Positions 1,684 to 61,728 of a DNA stretch of 64,000 nt are shown here, piece by piece. Source of the DNA: a virus. The position numbers and the translations under genes are program-made. Under the pieces are notes generated by a model that ran no database searches, was not told where the DNA came from, and saw only the letters and a program-made list of their open reading frames with translations. Location of the stretch: IMG/VR virus record IMGVR_UViG_3300049178_000049; one strand, written 5' to 3'. Every line of letters starts with the position of its first letter. Within the stretch, counting starts at the first letter, position 1.

Positions 1684-2436
1684 CTATGCGACCTCGCGGT
1701 TCATGAAGCCATCGAGGTGGACCCAGACCAGCGGCTGCGGCGCGATCGAGTCCGGCAGGTGCCGGAGCAACGCCTCCAGCGCCGCTCGGTCGCTGTGCAA
1801 CTTCACCCCGAAGGTCTGCCGCACCGAGATGAAGAACGGGCGGCGGAACGGATAGGCGGTCGCTGCCGCGATCCAGCCGTCTCGCTCGGCCTGCGGAAGG
1901 TCGCCGAACGTCATGGCGGCGGTTGGCGCCTTGCTCAGATGGGTGTCGCCGGGCGGATTCGTGCCGCGCCGCCACATCCGCTCTGCCATCACCGCCGCGT
2001 CGATCTCGAGCATGCCGGAAGGGTCGAACATCCGGGCACCGCACAACTCCACGAGCGGTCGCGCGGTTACCGGCCGCGAGCCGATCCACAGTTCGACGGT
2101 CGTGGCGTTCACCCACGCGTCCCATGCGCGCAGGAGCGGCTCGTTGGTCGGCGGGGGCAGGCGGTAGGGGCTCCCCGACGCGAGCCGGCACACATCGGTC
2201 ACGTTGGTCCTGGCGTACCACTCGACGATCAGGAACGTCTTGTCGGCTGGGAATTGGCCAGCGATCTGGAGGTTGGTCAGCGCTGCGTTGCCGATATTCC
2301 GGTTCCCGAACAGGCTGATGTAGGGAGCCACCTTGCCGTCGACCACTCGCGGGCCGCCGCCCAGCATGTCGCGTGGGCTGAAGGCATCGTACAGAGTGGC
2401 GTCGATCCGTTCCTTGTAACCCAATAGGCGTGGCAT
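1684..2436 (-). CDS. Diverged paralog of putative capsid protein A
   Basis: MPRLLGYKER, LFGNRNIGNAALTNLQIAGQ, RPFFISVRQTF and LDGFMNREV align with 12310-12885, plus an insertion. Confidence 0.75.
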   Translation of the reverse strand: MPRLLGYKERIDATLYDAFSPRDMLGGGPRVVDGKVAPYISLFGNRNIGNAALTNLQIAGQFPADKTFLIVEWYARTNVTDVCRLASGSPYRLPPPTNEPLLRAWDAWVNATTVELWIGSRPVTARPLVELCGARMFDPSGMLEIDAAVMAERMWRRGTNPPGDTHLSKAPTAAMTFGDLPQAERDGWIAAATAYPFRRPFFISVRQTFGVKLHSDRAALEALLRHLPDSIAPQPLVWVHLDGFMNREVA

Positions 2437-2458
2437 GGCATCACCATGCCACAACTTC

Positions 2459-3590: not shown

Positions 3591-4202
3591 TCAGCTGCTG
3601 AACAGCAGCCACAGGAACAGTGCGGCGCCGCCCACCAAAAGCACAGTCCCCAGGGTGCCCATCGAGGCGCCCGACAGCCAGGCCAGCGGGTCGTTGTTGT
3701 TTGTGAAGTTGTCCTCGCCCGCCGCGAAGTCTGGCACGGGCTTGTCCCGCACTTCCCAATGGGTGTGATTGGCCGAACTGGTCACGCCCACCTGGTCGCC
3801 TGCCACCACCTGCGCCCCCATCGGCGCCATCGAAGATGTCGCCGGCTCGAGGTGCGCCAGGAGATGGAACTTTCCGCTGTCATCCCCCTGGATGATGATG
3901 AACCACGGCCCGTAGCCGACAAACGGTGCAGCGGCGCCGCTGCCTACGGCGACCACAGTACCGCTCTCTGGGGCCACCACGGAGGTTCCAGCGGTGCCGG
4001 CGACATCCACTCCGGGGTGCTTGCACGGGTAGCCATGGACCCCACAGGAACCATCTGCGGGCGTGGCGCGCGCCTCGAGCCATCCCCCGTGCGCCCCCAC
4101 CTCGAGCGGGTAGACGGGCGGCTGGGGTCTGCCCGGTTCGGGCGTGGCTGTATCAACGGGCGTCGCGCCCAGCGCGCGACGCTGAATGCGGGCGTATGTC
4201 AT
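3591..4202 (-). CDS. M23 family peptidoglycan endopeptidase with C-terminal membrane anchor
   Basis: HPGVD (HxxxD) and HTH (HxH) zinc motifs; leader RRALGA; C-terminal TM helix. Confidence 0.85.
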   Translation of the reverse strand: MTYARIQRRALGATPVDTATPEPGRPQPPVYPLEVGAHGGWLEARATPADGSCGVHGYPCKHPGVDVAGTAGTSVVAPESGTVVAVGSGAAAPFVGYGPWFIIIQGDDSGKFHLLAHLEPATSSMAPMGAQVVAGDQVGVTSSANHTHWEVRDKPVPDFAAGEDNFTNNNDPLAWLSGASMGTLGTVLLVGGAALFLWLLFSS

Positions 4203-4211
4203 GTTGTTCGT

Positions 4212-6083
4212 TCAGCCGTAGTAGGGCTCGCCAACATCGTCCCTGATGAAGTGCGCTTCCCAGACGGGACGACCATCGGGGTACCGCTCCGGGGCATACT
4301 CGGATTCGGCGACCTCGGCTGGTTCAAACGCGCCAACCAGATCGGCACGGCTGAGATCCAGGAGCGATTCCTTGTGCGCCCTCGCCAGTTGCTTCTTGAA
4401 CTCCGCCAGGGTCATGCCAGTAAACCGCGGATCTCTCGTCGCGAGGCGATACGCTGCCGAAATGAACACCTTGTGGCCAGAGCGACCCTGGGTGCGTCCA
4501 TTGGGTCCTCGGGACCCCTTCACCTGAGGCAGCATCTCCCTCACGATCTTGGCGAACTCCGGCAGATCCATGCTGGCGACGGACTGCCGTTGTCGTGCGC
4601 TGCGGTCGCGGATCATGTGGAAGGTCGCACCGCGATCGACGATCTCGGACTCCTCGACTTCCTCGGGATCCGCATCCCCCCTGGCGTCCATCCGGGCGAG
4701 GTCCACGAGGCCCTGCTGGTTCGCTTCGACCAGCCTTCGCTTGAACAAAGAGGGCATGAACGCACGGAACCCCGGGGCTCGCTCCAGCGCGCGCCACGCG
4801 GCTGCAATGAACACCTTGTCTCCGAACCGCCCCATCGGCATCCCCGAGGGCCCGGGGCTCTCGGGGATGGCCGGTAGCGCAGCCTTCACCGCGCTGGCGA
4901 ACTCGGCCAGTGTCATCGGTTGCGGTGGCGGCGCCGCGTCCGCTTGTCCTGGCCTCGCCCCCTGCCCCGGTGCCCGGAGGACGCGCTTCAGATCGTCTGC
5001 CGTCGCCGCGCTTTTCACCAGGACGCGGTGATGGTGGCTGCGGAGCTGGTGCTCGTTCTCCGTGAAGAAGACGAACCGATCCACGAGTTGCGGGTATCGA
5101 TCCTGGATGTGCCGGAACAGATCGAGACCCGTGCGGGGCCCCAGCACGTTCACGTCGGAGATCACGAGACCGAACTCGTGGACCTCCAGATCGGCGATCG
5201 CGGCGCCGACGTTGTCGGCGAAAATGACGTGGGGGTTGGTTACGATCTGTTTCAGCATCCGGGCCAGCCTCGCCTGGATCTTCGGATCGTCCTCCATCAC
5301 CAGGATCTCGATGCCGAGTTGCTTGCCTGATGGGTTGCGCGTGGCACAGACGATGGCCTGGATCCCGTGCCCGAACTCGATGGTCCGGCACGGTTGGTCA
5401 TGCGCTGGCTGAAACTGCCGCAGCCGATGGTAGTTCTCGGTGGTATCGACTGAGCCGTACTTGTACCCGTGATCCTGCGCCCAGCGCTGGGCCTGGCGGA
5501 CGGTGTATCGATCCCCGCTGAACAGAAGACTCTGGACGCTGGAGTTCGGCCATCGTTCACCGGGGTTCGTGGACGGGTTGACCATGGACTCCGGGATGTC
5601 CTCCCAGGACATGTCCCAGGACATCTCTCGCCCATCATCGTCGAGTTCGACGTGGACCGTCGGCAACGCGAACTGTGCAAGGGGACCGGGCTCGTCGGTG
5701 CCAAGGCATACGCTCGCCAGTAGCGCGCCGAATGAGCGACCGGCGGCATCGGGATGAACACCGCGGATTCGTGTGTCGAAGTCGGCATCGGATGCCGATG
5801 TGACGTTCTTGAACATCGCCGCATACGGAAACCGCCCGAGTCCTGGATTCTTCTGAGCGATCCCATCCTCGAGCTCGCGCGCAGCCTGAATACCGGCCGC
5901 GCGGTTCATGACCGTGTCCGGCGCGACCTCCTCCCAGTCGCGACCCTCTGAAACATCGGGGGGTGGCTCAACATCGATCGACCACATCTGGAAGGCGTGC
6001 ACGTAGAGGGCGCGCGCGACGCCCTGGGCCACGTACGTGTCGATGTCCTTAGTGGGTGCTTGTTGGAACAGCGTTCTGGTCAT
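4212..6083 (-). CDS. Multidomain protein: two unknown domains, a response-regulator receiver domain, and two tandem copies of a helical domain
   Basis: REC signature ILVMEDD...ISD...FFT...LVK; duplicated KVFI(A/S)AA...FK..L..A....L.DL.R.D...EV.ESE unit; NP motifs at domain boundaries. Confidence 0.75.
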   Translation of the reverse strand: MTRTLFQQAPTKDIDTYVAQGVARALYVHAFQMWSIDVEPPPDVSEGRDWEEVAPDTVMNRAAGIQAARELEDGIAQKNPGLGRFPYAAMFKNVTSASDADFDTRIRGVHPDAAGRSFGALLASVCLGTDEPGPLAQFALPTVHVELDDDGREMSWDMSWEDIPESMVNPSTNPGERWPNSSVQSLLFSGDRYTVRQAQRWAQDHGYKYGSVDTTENYHRLRQFQPAHDQPCRTIEFGHGIQAIVCATRNPSGKQLGIEILVMEDDPKIQARLARMLKQIVTNPHVIFADNVGAAIADLEVHEFGLVISDVNVLGPRTGLDLFRHIQDRYPQLVDRFVFFTENEHQLRSHHHRVLVKSAATADDLKRVLRAPGQGARPGQADAAPPPQPMTLAEFASAVKAALPAIPESPGPSGMPMGRFGDKVFIAAAWRALERAPGFRAFMPSLFKRRLVEANQQGLVDLARMDARGDADPEEVEESEIVDRGATFHMIRDRSARQRQSVASMDLPEFAKIVREMLPQVKGSRGPNGRTQGRSGHKVFISAAYRLATRDPRFTGMTLAEFKKQLARAHKESLLDLSRADLVGAFEPAEVAESEYAPERYPDGRPVWEAHFIRDDVGEPYYG

Positions 6084-6274
6084 TGTCGCACCTCGGCACG
6101 AGGGGGCATGGCCCGCTTGCAGGCGAGGCACGTCACCCTGTCCCAGTCCTCGGTGCGAATGAACGACGGAGATTCCACCGTGACCGATGCATGATGAACG
6201 TGTTCGGATTCCCCTGCAACGTAATGCTCGGGCGCAATGCCGAGCAACATAGCGTCCGACAGCGCCACAGTCAC
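6080..6274 (-). CDS. Small hypothetical protein
   Basis: GGAGG Shine-Dalgarno, GTG start overlapping upstream stop; CxxC. Confidence 0.5.
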   Translation of the reverse strand: MTVALSDAMLLGIAPEHYVAGESEHVHHASVTVESPSFIRTEDWDRVTCLACKRAMPPRAEVRQ

Positions 6275-6816
6275 ACCTCCCTGGCTCGGTTGTCCTCGAC
6301 GACAAGCCGCAGCCGGCAGAGCGACCCCCCGGTGTGGAGCGCGCCGGGCACGTGCTTGTCGTCGCCGATCTCCCAGGCGCACTCGAAGGGCTCGATCGAC
6401 AACCGTCCGAACATGGAGATCGCTGCCAACTCGGCGACCGAGCTCGCCAACAGATGGATCCGCTTCGCCTGCGGGTTCATGGACCCTGGCTCGTACTCGA
6501 TCTTCTTCTGGTCCCCCCGGATGGTCGAGTGCTTGTGGCACCGGGGGCAGATGATCTGCACCCGCATGGGCTCGCCGGGCAGGGCGTAGACATCCAGGGT
6601 GAGCAGGAGGTCCCCGAACACTACCACCACCTCCTGCTTGCCTGCCGTAAGGCTGTGGGTGGATTGGAGGCCCGTGTGGTTGGTCAGGCCAGTAGGATCC
6701 GGGGCATCCCCGGCCAGTTGCACCACCTCGCGCTTTCCACTGGCAAGAGCCGATGGTCCGGCCAGCATCTGCTGTACGCGGGTGTCGGATAGGTCGACAT
6801 GAAGCGGGCGCGACAT
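6271..6816 (-). CDS. Hypothetical Zn-binding protein
   Basis: CPRCH plus further Cys; coupled to neighbours. Confidence 0.6.
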   Translation of the reverse strand: MSRPLHVDLSDTRVQQMLAGPSALASGKREVVQLAGDAPDPTGLTNHTGLQSTHSLTAGKQEVVVVFGDLLLTLDVYALPGEPMRVQIICPRCHKHSTIRGDQKKIEYEPGSMNPQAKRIHLLASSVAELAAISMFGRLSIEPFECAWEIGDDKHVPGALHTGGSLCRLRLVVEDNRAREV

Positions 6817-6817
6817 C

Positions 6818-7009
6818 CTACTCCGCCTTCCAGTCGCCGCGCTCGATGCGGTCGGCCATGACGTTCAGGGTCATCCGCTTCACCTTGGCCCACGTGACAT
6901 CCCCGCCGTGATCCTCGCCCTCCTTGATGAGTTCATCGAACTTCGCGGCCTCCTTGCGGAGATAGTCTACCACCTTGCGGATGGTCGCTGATTCGGTCTC
7001 GTTCGCCAT
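6818..7009 (-). CDS. Small hypothetical protein
   Basis: MANETESATIRK...; GGAG upstream of next gene. Confidence 0.5.
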   Translation of the reverse strand: MANETESATIRKVVDYLRKEAAKFDELIKEGEDHGGDVTWAKVKRMTLNVMADRIERGDWKAE

Positions 7010-7070
7010 GCCCCATGCTAGCCGGAGGGCAGCCAGATCGGGTAGCCTTTCCGCTCGAAAGGAGTTCGAC

Positions 7071-7410
7071 ATGCCAGACGACCCCGTTGCTGTTCTGATC
7101 CAGCAACTTCGTTCGCCCGCGCATCATGCGTGCTGCGAGTGCCTCGACATGACCAAGAATGAGCGTCCCTGCAGATACTGTAAGGGTAACGAGGCCAACG
7201 AGGTGCGGATGCAGCGGGCAGCAAAGGAACTCGAACGGTTGACAGAAGAACGGTCCAATGCCGAGCACGAGGTCGATCCGGTCAACCCGGCTCACTATCG
7301 CGGGGACACCGTCATGCGGATCATTGAGGACTTCGACCTCGGGTTCTGCCTCGGGAACGTCGTCAAGTACATCCTGCGCCACGCGGCGAAGGCCGGTCTT
7401 GAGGGGTCTT
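7071..7410 (+). pseudogene. DUF3310-like phage protein, truncated at the C-terminus
   Basis: VNPAHY...F.LGNVVKYI.R motif, but the expected DL.KA.WYL ending is absent; frame runs into thyX sequence. Confidence 0.65.
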
Positions 7411-7989
7411 GTCGAGGCCAAGCACGGCGACGAGAAGTTGCTCGCTTTCCTATGGGACAACAAACACGCGACCCCGTTCGAGATGGCCGGCGCGATCATC
7501 GAAGTCCAGGCCCCGATCTTCGTGTTCCGAGAATGGCATCGCCATCGCACACAGAGTTACAACGAGATGTCGGCGCGCTACACGCCGCTGCCCGACGTGA
7601 ACTACATCCCCACGGTCGAGCGCCTGCTGATGAACAGCAAGACCAACAAGCAGGCCGGCACGGTGAGGGGCGCTGCGGAGATGACCCAGCAGAACGCCGA
7701 GATTTACCTGCAGCAACTACGATAGGCCTACGTCGCCGACGAGCGTCTGTACAATCTTGCGCTCGCGGCCGGCGTCCCGAAGGAACTCGCGCGTGTGCAC
7801 CTGCCCGTCGGCCGCTACTCGCGGATGCGCGCCAGCGCCGTGTTGCGCAACTGGCTGTCGTTCCTGACGCTGCGCATGGCGCCAAGCGCGCAGTGGGAGA
7901 TCCGGCAGTACGCCAACGCGGTGCACGACCTGCTGGTCGAGCACTTCCCGCGAACGATGACCTTGTTCGATGGCAGTATAGCGCGCTGA
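7400..7989 (+). pseudogene. thyX: Flavin-dependent thymidylate synthase, 5'-truncated with an in-frame TAG at 7723-7725
   Basis: RHRTQSYNEMSARY signature, PKELAR, LRNWLSFLTLR..AQWEIR all in one frame across the TAG; no start codon or N-terminal segment. Confidence 0.85.
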
Positions 7990-12247: not shown

Positions 12248-13002
12248 CAACTCGTGAACTCGGTAGAGCGCCCGACCAGCCGGTCAAGGCCAATCGGGCG
12301 CCGGGGCGGTCACTGCACGTCGCGAGTTTGCAAACCGTCGAGCATAAACAGAATGTTCAGGATGTCGTCCGTGTCAGCAGCGTTCAGCCCGTTGAGGGCG
12401 CTCGTCGTGCCGATCGCGAAGAAGTCCGCCTGGGCGGCGAAGTTCTGCCGGACGGGCACGATGATCGGCCTCGCGAGCTTCAGGATCGATGCCTGCTCCG
12501 GGGTGCCGTGCGAGAAGATCGACGCGGTGGAGTCGAAGCCCCACACGCCGCCGCCCGCCGGGTAGTACCAGCACGGCGCCTGGAACATCGGCTTGGTGCC
12601 AACGACCAGCGTCCAGAACAGCTGCGACGTCACGTTCAGGTAGTTGTCCCGACGGTTCGGCCCGTCGAAGAACATGAAGCAGCGCAGGGCCAGGATGACG
12701 TACGTCTGATCCGAGGCGAGTTGGCCGGCGGTCTGGAGGTTGGTCAGCGCCAGGTTGCCGATGTTGGCGTTGCCGAACAGCTTGGTGCTGTTCACGATGG
12801 GGGTGGCCGGGGCGCCCGTGGAGCGCACCAGCGTATCCCAGAGCGGCTGGTGGAGCCGCTCGCGGTATCCGTGGAGACGAGGCATCGAAGAGTTCCTTTG
12901 CGGTACGTTTGATTCGGCGACCGGGGAGGGATTTCCGCTGTCACCTGGCTGGGACCGCCAGCCACAACTCGTGAACTCGGTGTTCGATCTCGTGAACTCG
13001 GT
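12248..13002. repeat. Three copies of CTCGTGAACTCGGT flanking capsid gene A (12251-12264, 12968-12981, 12989-13002)
   Basis: Read directly; the first two share 17 identical nt (CAACTCGTGAACTCGGT). Confidence 0.9.
12310..12885 (-). CDS. Putative single jelly-roll major capsid protein A
   Basis: Beta-strand-rich, 191 aa; PLWDT...LF...TNL...GQL motif; strong RBS; flanked by structured intergenic regions; next to Arg-rich core gene. Confidence 0.55.
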   Translation of the reverse strand: MPRLHGYRERLHQPLWDTLVRSTGAPATPIVNSTKLFGNANIGNLALTNLQTAGQLASDQTYVILALRCFMFFDGPNRRDNYLNVTSQLFWTLVVGTKPMFQAPCWYYPAGGGVWGFDSTASIFSHGTPEQASILKLARPIIVPVRQNFAAQADFFAIGTTSALNGLNAADTDDILNILFMLDGLQTRDVQ

Positions 13003-13032: not shown

Positions 13033-14514
13033 TCAGCCCCCGCCGCCGAACTTGCCGCCGAAGATGCCCGCGTACAGATCAGCAGATGCGTCGAATGCGG
13101 GCGTCACGCCCGGGATCCCCTTGGTGAAGGAGCGGGCAGGGATCGGCTGGATGAACGCCTGGGACGGGACCTGCTTCAGCATGGCCATGGAGCCGCTGGT
13201 GGGGCCCGGCAGGCCACCCAGGAGCACGTTGCCGAGCTCCTCGTCGACGCCCAGTTCCTCCTCCACTCCCATGCCCAGTTCCTGCTCCACGCCATCGGCG
13301 CCCACGGCCACGTAGTCGGACATGGTGATGCGCTCGTTGAGGGGTGGCGCTGCACCGACGGCCACGTAGTCGCCCATGTTGACGTAGTCGCCGACCGCCG
13401 ACTGAATGCTGGCCGGGGCAAACGCCGTCCAGAGCGAGGCCAGCGCCTGGAAGCCCGCGCCCATCATGGCCTGCTCACGGTACCTCGAGAGCGCGCCCAC
13501 CTTCTTCGTAACGAAGTTGGTGAGCAGCAGCGAGGCCACGGACAGCACGGGCCCCTGCAGCGTGCCCAGCGAGGACACGACCGGCAGCATGGGGCCGAAC
13601 TTGTTCACGACCATCCGGTTGGCCAGGAACGAGACGGCCACGGGGATGACGCGCTTGAGCTCGGTGAAAATGTCCCCGATGCCGGGATTCCGGCGGTACC
13701 GACGGTAGGATCGCCGACGCCCGCGCCGGTGCGACCGCCTGCGCCGCACGGTGTATCCGCGCCGGTGCGACCGCCGCCGCTTCCGGCGCCGACGCCCGGG
13801 GTTCATCCGGACGGTGGTGGCCTCGGGGCCCATCAGCATGTGCAGCCGCCGCGAGGACATCCGCTTGGTGGCGCGGCGCCCCTTGCGACGCCGCCGACTG
13901 GGCCGGGTCACCCGCACGCCATGAATGGTGGTGTGTACCGTACGGCGACGGCGCCTCCGCGACGCATGACTGCGGCGCGCGCGAGCGCGCTTCCGGTGCA
14001 CCGACTTCCGGGCGCGGCGCTTCTTGCCGCCCCCCGACCGGCGCGCACGCCGACGCTTGGTGCGGCCCAGCGCGCCCATCTTGCCGGCGCGCTTGCGGGC
14101 CCTCCAGTACCGCTTCATGGCGGCGCTTCGCTTCTTCGACCCTTTGGCCATTGAATTGCTCCTGGGGCTGCGGTTCTTGCGGCTGCGCCAGCCCTTGAGC
14201 GCTGCCCGTCGCCGTTTCTTGACCGCCCACGGGTGGGCGTTGCCGGCGCGGCGCCGCCCGGCGGGATTCCTTCGATGCTTCGCCCAGTAGTCCCTCAGCG
14301 GCTTGGGCATGCGATGACGCCGCCGGGTGCGGGTGCCGTGCTTCGCCCAGTAGCGGGCGAGTGCGACCGGCTGGCGAGCCTTGCGTCGCTTGTGATGCGG
14401 CGGGCGATCCGGCGCCCCGTAGCGGGGCCGACGCTTGCGAGCGGGGTTGCTCACCGCCGCGCTGCCACGGATCCGCAGCCCGCGACGCTTGCCGTTGACG
14501 AAGAGGATGGGCAC
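13033..14514 (-). CDS. Arg-rich (protamine-like) core protein with membrane domain and acidic tail
   Basis: About 275 N-terminal residues dominated by R/K/H with four NP motifs, then a hydrophobic helical domain, then GDYV/ELG repeats; probable GTG start. Confidence 0.8.
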   Translation of the reverse strand: MPILFVNGKRRGLRIRGSAAVSNPARKRRPRYGAPDRPPHHKRRKARQPVALARYWAKHGTRTRRRHRMPKPLRDYWAKHRRNPAGRRRAGNAHPWAVKKRRRAALKGWRSRKNRSPRSNSMAKGSKKRSAAMKRYWRARKRAGKMGALGRTKRRRARRSGGGKKRRARKSVHRKRARARRSHASRRRRRRTVHTTIHGVRVTRPSRRRRKGRRATKRMSSRRLHMLMGPEATTVRMNPGRRRRKRRRSHRRGYTVRRRRSHRRGRRRSYRRYRRNPGIGDIFTELKRVIPVAVSFLANRMVVNKFGPMLPVVSSLGTLQGPVLSVASLLLTNFVTKKVGALSRYREQAMMGAGFQALASLWTAFAPASIQSAVGDYVNMGDYVAVGAAPPLNERITMSDYVAVGADGVEQELGMGVEEELGVDEELGNVLLGGLPGPTSGSMAMLKQVPSQAFIQPIPARSFTKGIPGVTPAFDASADLYAGIFGGKFGGGG

Positions 14515-14758
14515 GAGATCGACACCGCGCGCATCCCCAACTTTAGTCAACCCCCTATTTTCGATTTCCTGTCAGTGGAAATCGCGCAACTACCTGATAG
14601 TATGTCCTGGCATCCTGCTGCCCCGGATGCCCAGACCGCCGGAACGTGAGCAAGCGCGCAAGTACGACGGCCATACCTACCGGCTGGGAATAAAGTTCGG
14701 AGGGATCCCGCAAGGGCGTTAAGGGCTTCCAGGACGCCTCCCTGGCAAGCAGCGGAGT

Positions 14759-18557: not shown

Positions 18558-19246
18558 CAGCGCCTCCGCGTGGTGGGGATGGTCCGCCTGGAACGCCGCT
18601 TCTTGACCAGCACGTACCCCAGCCCGCCAGCGACACCCAGAAGGGCGAGCTTGCCGACATCCGACATCCCCGCCAGCGAGCCAAGGATGCCAGCGTCCGG
18701 TGCCAGCACGGTCTTACCGCTCTTGGTCACGATGGTCGGCGGCGAGATAGACAGGGTCGGGCCGCTGACCGTGGCCGGCGCACCGAGCGCGTCCGCGAAC
18801 ACCTGAATCTGCTGCCCCAGGACATCCACATCGGCCGCGATGTTCAGACATGTCGAAGCATCGCCCATGATTTGGCCCGAGGGTGCCGCCGCCTGCACCT
18901 TCTTGAACAGCGCCATCGTAGCAGGGCCCACCGCCCCGTCGGTCGAGATCTTGGAGTAACCCTTGGCCTGGGCGACGCGGTTGAGTTGCAGCTGGAACGC
19001 CCGCGAGGCGGCGAGGGCCGGGAAGTTCCTCGGCTTGCAGACGCCATTGATGTTGATGAAGTCCGCGATCGATGTCGAGGTCCCGGTCGTCGTCTGATTC
19101 ACGTCATCCGAGGGGTCGGCCTGGGAGGCATCCACCGCGCCAGATGCGCTCATGAAGCTTCCGAACTCGTCCGTCAGGCGAAGGAAAGGATCGGTCACCA
19201 GATCCGTTGCATCGCCCAGCGATTGCCGCTTCATGAGGTAGGTCAT
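18557..19246 (-). CDS. Tail-anchored protein with peptidoglycan-binding (PG_binding_1-like) domain
   Basis: KRQSLGD leader; FQLQLN...DGAVGPAT motif; C-terminal TM plus KKRR. Confidence 0.7.
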   Translation of the reverse strand: MTYLMKRQSLGDATDLVTDPFLRLTDEFGSFMSASGAVDASQADPSDDVNQTTTGTSTSIADFININGVCKPRNFPALAASRAFQLQLNRVAQAKGYSKISTDGAVGPATMALFKKVQAAAPSGQIMGDASTCLNIAADVDVLGQQIQVFADALGAPATVSGPTLSISPPTIVTKSGKTVLAPDAGILGSLAGMSDVGKLALLGVAGGLGYVLVKKRRSRRTIPTTRRR

Positions 19247-60735: not shown

Positions 60736-61371
60736 ATGGCGAGATCCCGACTACACCGCCGGTACGTCAAGAAGACCTTCAAGGCGAACCCTCCGCTGTT
60801 CACGGACCTCGTGGAGTTCGTGATCCCGGGATTCGGAGGGTTCGCGGCCACCCGGTTCGTGACGCGCGTCGCCATGACCCAGGTCGCGCAGCGAGCGCCA
60901 TCCTGGGGCAAGCACGCCGGGGCGGTCGCCTCGGTCGGCTCGTTCTTGGCGGCATGGTTTCTGGCCCACAAGTGGAAGTGGCTCGAAAAGTGGCACACCC
61001 CCATCGTGGTGGGCTCGGCGATCGCAGCCGGGCAGTCGCTGCTCCAGATCTACGCCCCGAACCTTCTGGGGTGGATCGTGTCGGACGCGACGCCCGAGCT
61101 CGCAGCCGGCACCGCCCAGGCCGCGCTCACCGCGCCGGACCAGCAACTGGCCCAATTGCACCTGCAGCCGACCAACGAGGATCCCAACGAGTTCACCTAC
61201 AACGACTCGTATGACGCCGGACGGTACAACGGCCAGCAGGGTCCAGGCTCCATGAAGGTAGGCCCCTTGCCGCCCAACCAGCCGGTACAATCGCCACCGG
61301 CCACCGACGGTTCAGACTTGGCGATCGATGACGCCATCGGCACCGCGAACCTGGGCGTGTTCGCCAACTAG
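60736..61371 (+). CDS. Paralog of the membrane domain of the Arg-rich core protein
   Basis: Basic leader ending KANP, then FT.L...VIP....F.A.R.V...V.SV.S.L...F...K...G....A..SL....AP aligning with 13033-14514. Confidence 0.75.
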   Translation: MARSRLHRRYVKKTFKANPPLFTDLVEFVIPGFGGFAATRFVTRVAMTQVAQRAPSWGKHAGAVASVGSFLAAWFLAHKWKWLEKWHTPIVVGSAIAAGQSLLQIYAPNLLGWIVSDATPELAAGTAQAALTAPDQQLAQLHLQPTNEDPNEFTYNDSYDAGRYNGQQGPGSMKVGPLPPNQPVQSPPATDGSDLAIDDAIGTANLGVFAN

Positions 61372-61383
61372 GAGGTTCCACGC

Positions 61384-61728
61384 ATGTCCTACTTCCGCAG
61401 GCAGCGAGCGCTCTCCGGGGTCTCGACGACCTTCCCAGTCCACCGGAAGTCGCGCGTCCCGTTCGGCGCGCTGGGATCACTGGGCGATGACACGACAGGC
61501 GCAACCTCCATTACCGTTCCGACGCTGCCAGCGCCCGCCCCGGACCCGGCCAGTTTACAGTGGCAAGCGAACGTCCTGTCGCAGCTTCAGGCGGGCGTCG
61601 CCACCTTGCAGAAGGCCGAGCTCCAGAAGTGGCTCCAGATCATCGCCACCGTCTCCATCCCCCTGTCGGCGGCGATCTGGAAGATGATCTTCAAGAAGGG
61701 GGCCCAGAACATCTCGACCGGGGTGTAG
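61384..61728 (+). CDS. Tail-anchored putative virion membrane protein
   Basis: MSYFRRQR...GALGSLGDD; TM plus KK. Confidence 0.8.
   Translation: MSYFRRQRALSGVSTTFPVHRKSRVPFGALGSLGDDTTGATSITVPTLPAPAPDPASLQWQANVLSQLQAGVATLQKAELQKWLQIIATVSIPLSAAIWKMIFKKGAQNISTGV

Follow-up and report, generated by a model that had tools for sequence, protein, structure and literature searches.

Highly Basic Viral Proteins Encoded beside Capsid-Like Genes: Candidate Genome-Condensing Proteins of an Apparently Undescribed Virus Lineage

What would a virus do with a protein whose first 275 residues carry a net charge of +112? Such a protein is encoded on the minus strand of a 64,000-nucleotide stretch of viral DNA (IMG/VR record IMGVR_UViG_3300049178_000049; this whole stretch is called the window below). 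Its gene, at positions 13,033 to 14,514, specifies three segments (i.e., residues 1 to 275, polybasic; residues 276 to 363, helical and hydrophobic; and residues 364 to 493, a repeat tail) and is followed by two genes, for proteins of 191 and 208 aa, that are likely capsid genes on the basis of conservation, gene order, and structural modeling. An earlier note on this DNA had proposed that the protein condenses the genome in the manner of adenovirus pVII and holds it at an internal membrane. We favor, with moderate confidence, a related reading, in which the protein is the DNA-condensing core protein of a bacterial virus that is tailless, probably contains a membrane, and has a genome of ~80 kb. 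Tethering to the membrane by the helical module is a distinctly more tentative part of this reading.

Charge, Family, and Genomic Setting

The polybasic domain contains 90 arginine, 25 lysine, and 13 histidine residues together with two aspartate residues and one glutamate residue (41.8% arginine plus lysine), in agreement with the ~275 residues of R/K/H runs described in the earlier note. A word-indexed search with the non-basic part of the protein retrieved 34 clusters at 90% identity, several of them from contigs of 72 to 89 kb. A profile of the C-terminal 220 residues, built from eight loci and searched against 1.84 billion representative proteins, retrieved at least 204 clusters (50% identity), all metagenomic or viral, of which 97 had E values below 1e-30. 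Nearly all full-length members are extended N-terminally by 150 to 445 residues, of which 35 to 55% are arginine or lysine and almost none are acidic; the basic domains of more than 100 members have net charges of +69 to +136. Since the architecture recurs in both sets of clusters, it does not reflect chance, and since the extreme charge is kept everywhere in the family, the charge itself is under selection.

Among close relatives, the ratio of nonsynonymous to synonymous substitution rates was 0.26 to 0.40 for the basic part and 0.06 to 0.22 for the remainder, and all length differences were in frame. Purifying selection thus acts on this frame. The identity of the protein among relatives ranges from 37 to 77%. 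When column conservation was computed over 20 diverse members, the tail was the best-conserved segment (35 of 130 columns at least 90% conserved), compared with 10 of 90 such columns in the helical module and 6 of 254 in the basic part.

No Pfam family matched the whole protein at E ≤ 0.1, and PHROGs yielded no match; the same searches with nine neighboring proteins likewise gave nothing usable. Neither half of the protein matched PDB chain sequences meaningfully (one stray match; E 0.94). The 50,697 phage genomes of INPHARED provided no DNA or protein match beyond one match at E = 10 to a tape measure gene, and no provirus copy was found in one pattern scan of 185,579 prokaryote genomes. Matches in the ESM Atlas were to unnamed viral clusters only, and literature searches returned no account of this virus lineage, which appears to be undescribed.

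The window is collinear with an 82,646-bp IMG/VR genome (G001; 123-bp direct terminal repeats; CheckV 100%) at ~80% nucleotide identity. The gene order up183-up136-up77-target-191 aa-208 aa-membrane-anchored proteins was invariant in nine of nine IMG/VR loci, which lie on contigs of 55 to 86 kb and include five complete genomes. Because the gene holds this fixed place in the morphogenesis block, a role in the virion is indicated. Across the N-terminal half, selection has consistently kept only extreme positive charge, and nucleic acid binding is therefore the probable natural function of that half.

The packaging machinery of these viruses bears on the same question. Models of TerL, FtsK/HerA, and A32 ATPases gave no match at E ≤ 1 in five complete relatives (G001 to G005; 79 to 86 kb; direct terminal repeats; CheckV 100%), and Terminase_6N gave none in G001, the genome searched with that model. 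The same searches do recover these families in control genomes. Condensation of the genome by a protein is an attractive explanation because a packaging ATPase was not found in the complete relatives.

In the mechanism that we propose, the polybasic domain, punctuated by Arg-Arg-Asn-Pro (RRNP) motifs that may form turns or helix starts, would bind double-stranded DNA and neutralize its charge. The helical module would insert into the viral membrane, lie on it, or oligomerize, and the disordered, conserved tail would dock the nucleoprotein to another virion component or be removed in maturation. Each of these steps (i.e., DNA binding, presence in the virion, membrane association, docking, and any cleavage) is one that we infer. 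A genome of 79,753 bp, the length of the contig that holds the window, contains ~159,500 phosphates, so that by calculation ~1,400 copies of the protein would neutralize it fully and ~700 copies would neutralize half of it; 700 to 1,400 copies are plausible for a large capsid. The core role put forward in the earlier note thus fits the charge, the invariant gene order, and the lack of a known packaging ATPase, while the homology to pVII that might have accompanied it was not found.

Gene Organization, Motifs, and Possible Processing

The coordinates of the gene, its segments, and related features are summarized in Table 1.

Table 1. Features of the polybasic protein gene and of related or neighboring genes in the window
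Feature	Position	Strand	Basis or remark
Whole gene	13033..14514	-	493 codons and a stop; begins with GTG at 14514
Polybasic domain, aa 1-275	13690..14514	-	Composition, family alignment
Helical, moderately hydrophobic module, aa 276-363	13426..13689	-	Entered by invariant R-R-N-P-G
Conserved tail, aa 364-493	13036..13425	-	Net charge -10
Candidate internal start	14149..14163	-	AGGAG at 14159-14163, 7 nt upstream of in-frame ATG at 14149-14151 (Met122)
Upstream element AGGGGGTTGACT	14545..14556	-	Conserved in 9/10 relatives; ends 30 nt before the GTG start
Putative major capsid protein A, 191 aa	12310..12885	-	Conservation, synteny, weak jelly-roll model
Second putative capsid protein B, 208 aa	11551..12177	-	Always follows protein A
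Helical-module paralog	60736..61371	+	hhalign probability 95%, E 2.6e-8, 83 columns; BLASTP E 3e-4

The basic domain is not uniform. Its conserved islands are the N-terminal P-I-L/M-F/Y-V-N-P/G, the segment MAKGSKKRS...KRYWRARKRAGK-G, and RMNPGRRRR, and an A-R-Y-W motif occurs once or twice per polybasic domain (R-Y-W at residues 54 and 135 in the window protein). The most regular element is Asn-Pro (NP): across 115 family members, the basic domains contain 487 of them, compared with 37 ± 6 after shuffling (i.e., a ~13-fold excess; since an NP closes the basic domain as defined here, up to one NP per protein in this count comes from the definition). In these domains, 69% of the asparagines precede proline, most commonly in the context R-R-N-P. 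The window protein has NP at residues 23, 83, 238, and 276, and the last of these (R-R-N-P-G), at the entry to the helical module, is invariant across the family. The homolog in another record (L011; IMGVR_UViG_3300036868_000046, 5995-7482) carries five tandem Y-R-R-N-P-R-R-R units directly before the helical module, and because of these units the RRNP unit seems able to expand by tandem duplication.

By analogy, three candidate readings of the NP motif may be considered. It may be a turn that displays the arginines beside it to DNA, as SPKK motifs and AT-hooks do; it may be a helix-start motif with an Asn cap and Pro at N1, as which Asn-Pro is common; or it may be a self-cleavage site of the kind found in reovirus mu1 (N42-P43) and in FlhB/YscU (the NPTH motif), where a folded context is needed.

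The basic domain also contains a candidate internal start. AGGAG or GAGGAG precedes a conserved Met-Ala-Lys/Arg/Gly ATG by 7 to 12 nt in nine of ten homologs, while L011 has AAGGA. This pair of a Shine-Dalgarno sequence and an ATG is kept although the flanking residues differ between homologs, and AGG, the arginine codon within the internal AGGAG, is rare in the basic domain (6 of 90 arginines). In databases, 48 of 171 gene calls of the family begin at a methionine of the Met122 type. Because the internal AGGAG and ATG are conserved as a pair, we infer from the sequence a nested isoform of 372 aa that would begin at Met122 and whose basic part would have a net charge of +72.

The tail is predicted to be disordered (predicted local distance difference test [pLDDT] below 50 in an AlphaFold model). 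Its motifs are AFAPAS, three hydrophobic-G/S-D-Y units (VGDY, MGDY, and MSDY), PIPARSFTK, and Y-x-G-I-F-G-G, together with three EELG-type units; the GDYV/SDYV and ELG repeats reported in the earlier note are thereby recovered. Since the tail is predicted to be disordered yet is the most conserved segment, its sequence suggests that it may hold short linear motifs for partner binding or motifs for processing. The earlier note had also assigned the tail the task of neutralizing the basic part until cleavage. The tail is only mildly acidic, and we rejected the idea of an acidic mask on charge, because -10 cannot offset +112.

In the window, at least seven late membrane proteins have basic leaders of the form M-[S/T/A]-Y that are followed by [LM]-G-D, and the hydrophobic-G/S-D-Y units of the tail are similar to this sequence. 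On the minus strand, leader-bearing starts lie at 19246, 17049, 10253, 8711, 8265, and 4202, and on the plus strand one lies at 61384. The leader pattern is M-[S/T/A]-Y-x-[K/R], a basic stretch, and then [LM]-G-[D/A/S], and most of the proteins that bear it end in a hydrophobic anchor and a basic tail; roughly 0.6 starts of this type would be expected by chance among ~90 open reading frames (ORFs). One of the leader-bearing proteins, with an M-T-Y leader and a C-terminal anchor, is an M23 peptidoglycan peptidase (3591-4202, minus strand; E 9e-11), a candidate virion-borne entry enzyme.

These motifs raise a variant of the condensing role, in which the product is a precursor that is cleaved to yield multiple protamine-like peptides plus one fragment that comprises the helical module and the tail. 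The cuts would fall at the Asn-Pro motifs, by Asn-mediated self-cleavage, or at the hydrophobic-Gly/Ser-Asp sites. The excess of NP and the high share of asparagines that precede proline would be expected of such a precursor, as would the invariant NP at the boundary of the basic and helical segments, which is present there in a paralog too (see below), and the likeness of VGDY, MGDY, and MSDY to the sites after the late-protein leaders. Against this stand the results of the protease searches, in which no family was found by Pfam in the window ORFs or by a relaxed Pfam search of the operon. The five tandem units of L011 also look like binding or turn repeats rather than cut sites, and the helix-start role of Asn-Pro and the folded context of its known self-cleavage argue in the same direction. 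We consider the precursor model unlikely.

The boundaries of the gene were set by conservation. The longest open frame spans 13033 to 14550 on the minus strand. We assigned the start to the GTG at 14514 because conservation begins there, both in the family alignment and in the upstream DNA of nine relatives; this coincides with the boundary given in the earlier note. The TTG at 14550 was rejected as the start, as relatives conserve the protein only from a GTG or ATG at the PILFVN motif. The N terminus reads M-P-I-L-F-V-N-G, of which relatives keep [M/V]-P/G-I-L/M-F/Y-V-N. The G+C content at third codon positions is 0.87, which is typical of real genes in this window of 65% G+C content. Upstream of the GTG, AGGGGGTTGACT includes TTGACT, which resembles a -35 hexamer; this region has no Shine-Dalgarno sequence at the usual distance, no -10 consensus, and no full sigma-70 consensus. 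Because a -35-like hexamer occurs here without a -10 consensus or a Shine-Dalgarno sequence, the mRNA may be leaderless or short-leadered. We also considered AGGGGGTTGACT as a repeated late-promoter motif and rejected it, given its single exact copy in the window and the lack of the full consensus. At the other end of the gene, a GCACCGCGCGGTGC palindrome directly follows the stop codon and precedes two copies of CCGAGTTCACGAG (12968-13001, minus strand) in the 147-nt spacer that leads to the capsid-like gene at 12885.

Virion Setting and Competing Explanations

The capsid assignment of the neighbors centers on protein A, which is represented by 647 clusters and retains 70 to 99% identity, far above the conservation of the polybasic protein. 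In an all-against-all structural search, its AlphaFold model matched best the single jelly-roll capsid protein of SPV1 (6oj0; Z 7.1; 124 residues; root mean square deviation 3.7), followed at lower scores by the satellite panicum mosaic virus coat protein (Z 5.8) and sphaerolipovirus capsid proteins (Z 4.7 to 4.9; HHIV-2, Z 4.9). Foldseek gave weak matches in PDB and BFVD, mostly to jelly-roll coat proteins. Protein B has no sequence similarity to protein A. A diverged 256-aa paralog of protein A is encoded 10 kb from the main copy (1684-2454, minus strand; BLASTP E 5e-15; 33% identity over 130 aa).

At least 10 small proteins of the operon have a hydrophobic segment and then a basic tail at the C terminus, the usual signature of membrane-containing virions. 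Pfam searches of 79 window ORFs detected 11 families (DUF5131, GP88, C5 methylase, ThyX, integrase, M23 peptidase, DUF5907, receiver domain, phosphatase, DnaJ, and one coiled-coil match); no terminase, portal, HK97 capsid, or tail family was among them. The rest of G001 likewise contained no portal, HK97, or tail family in Pfam searches, and its 17 kb beyond window coverage add an AAA ATPase, a PAPS reductase, and a nucleotidyl transferase. The M23 peptidase, the integrase, and the usage of Shine-Dalgarno sequences point to a bacterial host.

The helical module is predicted to form three or four helices (pLDDT 65 to 77), and its 19-residue Kyte-Doolittle maximum is 1.46. It may be a membrane hairpin or an oligomerization bundle, and the data allow membrane insertion and a soluble or peripheral helical bundle equally. 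An AlphaFold model of the C-terminal 220 aa (pLDDT 53) was set aside, because the fold search gave generic helical matches only (Z ≤ 7.4). The paralog of the module has a basic leader of only 19 aa that ends in K-A-N-P, and its tail is unrelated to that of the polybasic protein; since it carries the module without a long basic domain, the sequences indicate that the module is a separable unit. The paralog adjoins another leader-bearing anchored protein (61384-61728).

Several results weigh against the condensing role or parts of it. The searches of Pfam, PHROGs, PDB sequences, and the 50,697 phage genomes described above provided no homology link to any DNA-binding protein. The model of protein A, which is mostly beta, has low confidence (pLDDT 56; predicted template modeling score 0.52), and structural Z scores of up to 7.1 are in the range that the tool calls common. 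The position directly upstream of capsid genes that the earlier note described therefore stands, and the capsid identity itself is weakly supported. The best 19-residue segments of the helical module had summed insertion free energies of +3.9 to +7 kcal/mol in ten homologs on the Hessa scale, while the clearer anchors of neighboring genes had -1.8 to +2.6 kcal/mol; the helices are thus weaker than most of these anchors. The amphipathic or transmembrane helices of the earlier note are borne out as predicted helices, and their transmembrane propensity is weak.

A further objection concerns the motor. G001 encodes a classic AAA ATPase (PF00004; 21765-22520) outside the operon and beyond window coverage, and this enzyme or an unrecognized motor could package the DNA. 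Apart from this, a 1,177-aa ORF of G001 (67608-71141, minus strand) has a Walker A motif (GEMGTGKT); it faces window positions ~28.8 to 31.8 kb in a segment that has no window counterpart. Moreover, by the positive-inside rule, a +112 domain would not be exportable across a membrane, which would place it and the DNA on the cytoplasmic face. If the helices are membrane embedded, the membrane would therefore have formed around the nucleoprotein, and not as a PRD1-type vesicle filled by a motor via a portal.

Less likely than processing of a precursor is a role in assembly, in which the tail and helical module would organize the capsid or membrane lattice as a scaffold, and the basic part would have no task beyond recruiting DNA or balancing charge. 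Such a protein would be comparable to PRD1 P30 and to the tape-measure-like proteins of large jelly-roll viruses. Its gene would be expected to adjoin capsid-like genes, as it does; the high conservation of the tail and the helical module and the existence of a module paralog without a long basic domain also agree with this idea. The length of the basic domain, however, varies 2.5-fold (179 to 445 aa) at similar genome sizes, which is unsuited to a ruler, and the extreme charge is maintained throughout the family, so that the charge itself is under selection.

Polybasic proteins bind any DNA, and the protein might therefore compact or shut off the host nucleoid or serve replication without being packaged. 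We regard this as very unlikely in view of the fixed position of the gene inside the morphogenesis block in all nine loci and the style that the hydrophobic module and tail share with virion membrane proteins. Least credible is a membrane-active polycation for entry or lysis, with a cell-penetrating Arg-rich domain and membrane helices: the Arg-rich region does lie beside hydrophobic helices, and the window does encode an M23 peptidase of virion type that bears the late-protein leader, but 275 basic residues are far above any known lytic or penetrating peptide, the helices are weakly hydrophobic, and the gene is placed with capsid genes rather than in a lysis cassette.

Known Systems and Significance

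The DNA-condensing reading invites comparison with known basic core proteins. Inside its jelly-roll capsid, adenovirus condenses a double-stranded DNA genome with the Arg-rich proteins pVII and pX (Mu). Both arise from precursors, whose termini touch the capsid and are cut back by the viral protease. The protein described here has no sequence similarity to them (no Pfam match at E ≤ 0.1), is 2.5 times longer, has about twice their share of arginine, and carries a helical module and an acidic repeat tail in addition. Adenovirus also has a packaging ATPase, none of which was detected in the present virus group, whose host is probably bacterial. Because no homology was found, the resemblance to pVII is an analogy and not membership. 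SPV1 (Portogloboviridae), whose VP4 is the best structural match of protein A, is an archaeal virus with a 20-kb genome, and its nucleocapsid protein VP1 wraps DNA as an ordered filament. PDB sequence searches found no relation of the polybasic protein to VP1; this was a search result and not a direct comparison with VP1.

In phiX174, the basic N-terminal part of the J protein binds the genome, and its hydrophobic C-terminal part anchors it to the interior of the jelly-roll capsid. This is the division of labor that we propose here (i.e., a basic DNA end and a hydrophobic anchoring end), although J has fewer than 40 residues, serves a single-stranded DNA genome, and has no homology to the polybasic protein (no PHROG match). 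Protamines and baculovirus P6.9 act by charge neutralization, and they share with the polybasic protein an extreme arginine content and the near absence of acidic residues. The baculovirus case of charge neutralization has been mentioned previously (PMC6669607). These proteins have 50 to 60 residues and no attached modules, whereas the present protein has islands (R-Y-W, MAKGSKKRS, and RMNPGRRRR) and regular RRNP motifs.

Like the virus proposed here, Salisaeta icosahedral phage 1 (SSIP-1) infects bacteria, is large and tailless, and contains a membrane. The 24 annotated proteins examined from its structural region include no polybasic one, and ten proteins of the operon had no significant tblastn match to it (best E 0.06); SSIP-1 therefore has no counterpart of the gene by these sequence comparisons. 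Judged by its sequence features, the polybasic protein would belong functionally with the viral basic core proteins, and it appears to be a member of none of the families named here.

Adenoviruses, baculoviruses, and some archaeal viruses condense their genomes with protein. To our knowledge, no bacterial double-stranded DNA virus uses a protamine-like protein for genome compaction, and all those that have been well studied fill a preformed shell with naked DNA by means of an ATP-driven motor. Assembly around a nucleoprotein is known for the double-stranded DNA polyomaviruses and papillomaviruses and has been inferred for some double-stranded DNA archaeal viruses; we know of no bacterial virus that assembles in this way. 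A far-reaching extension of the condensing role, which we regard as doubtful, is that this family replaces the packaging motor. A protamine-like protein associated with the membrane, made as two nested isoforms and possibly fragmented at Asn-Pro or Gly-Asp, would collapse the genome. Around the resulting nucleoprotein, the jelly-roll shell and the membrane would then form.

This analysis adds several points: how large and widespread the family is, its RRNP punctuation, an internal ribosome-binding site that is conserved, the helical-module paralog, and the finding that the constrained element is the tail rather than the basic part. A conserved and abundant family of proteins whose basic domains have net charges of +70 to +136, encoded beside jelly-roll-like genes in complete genomes without a known packaging ATPase, suggests a protein-based route of genome condensation. 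The family provides a testable handle on that route, i.e., one gene with separable modules and clear motifs, and it serves as a marker for recognizing this lineage in metagenomes.

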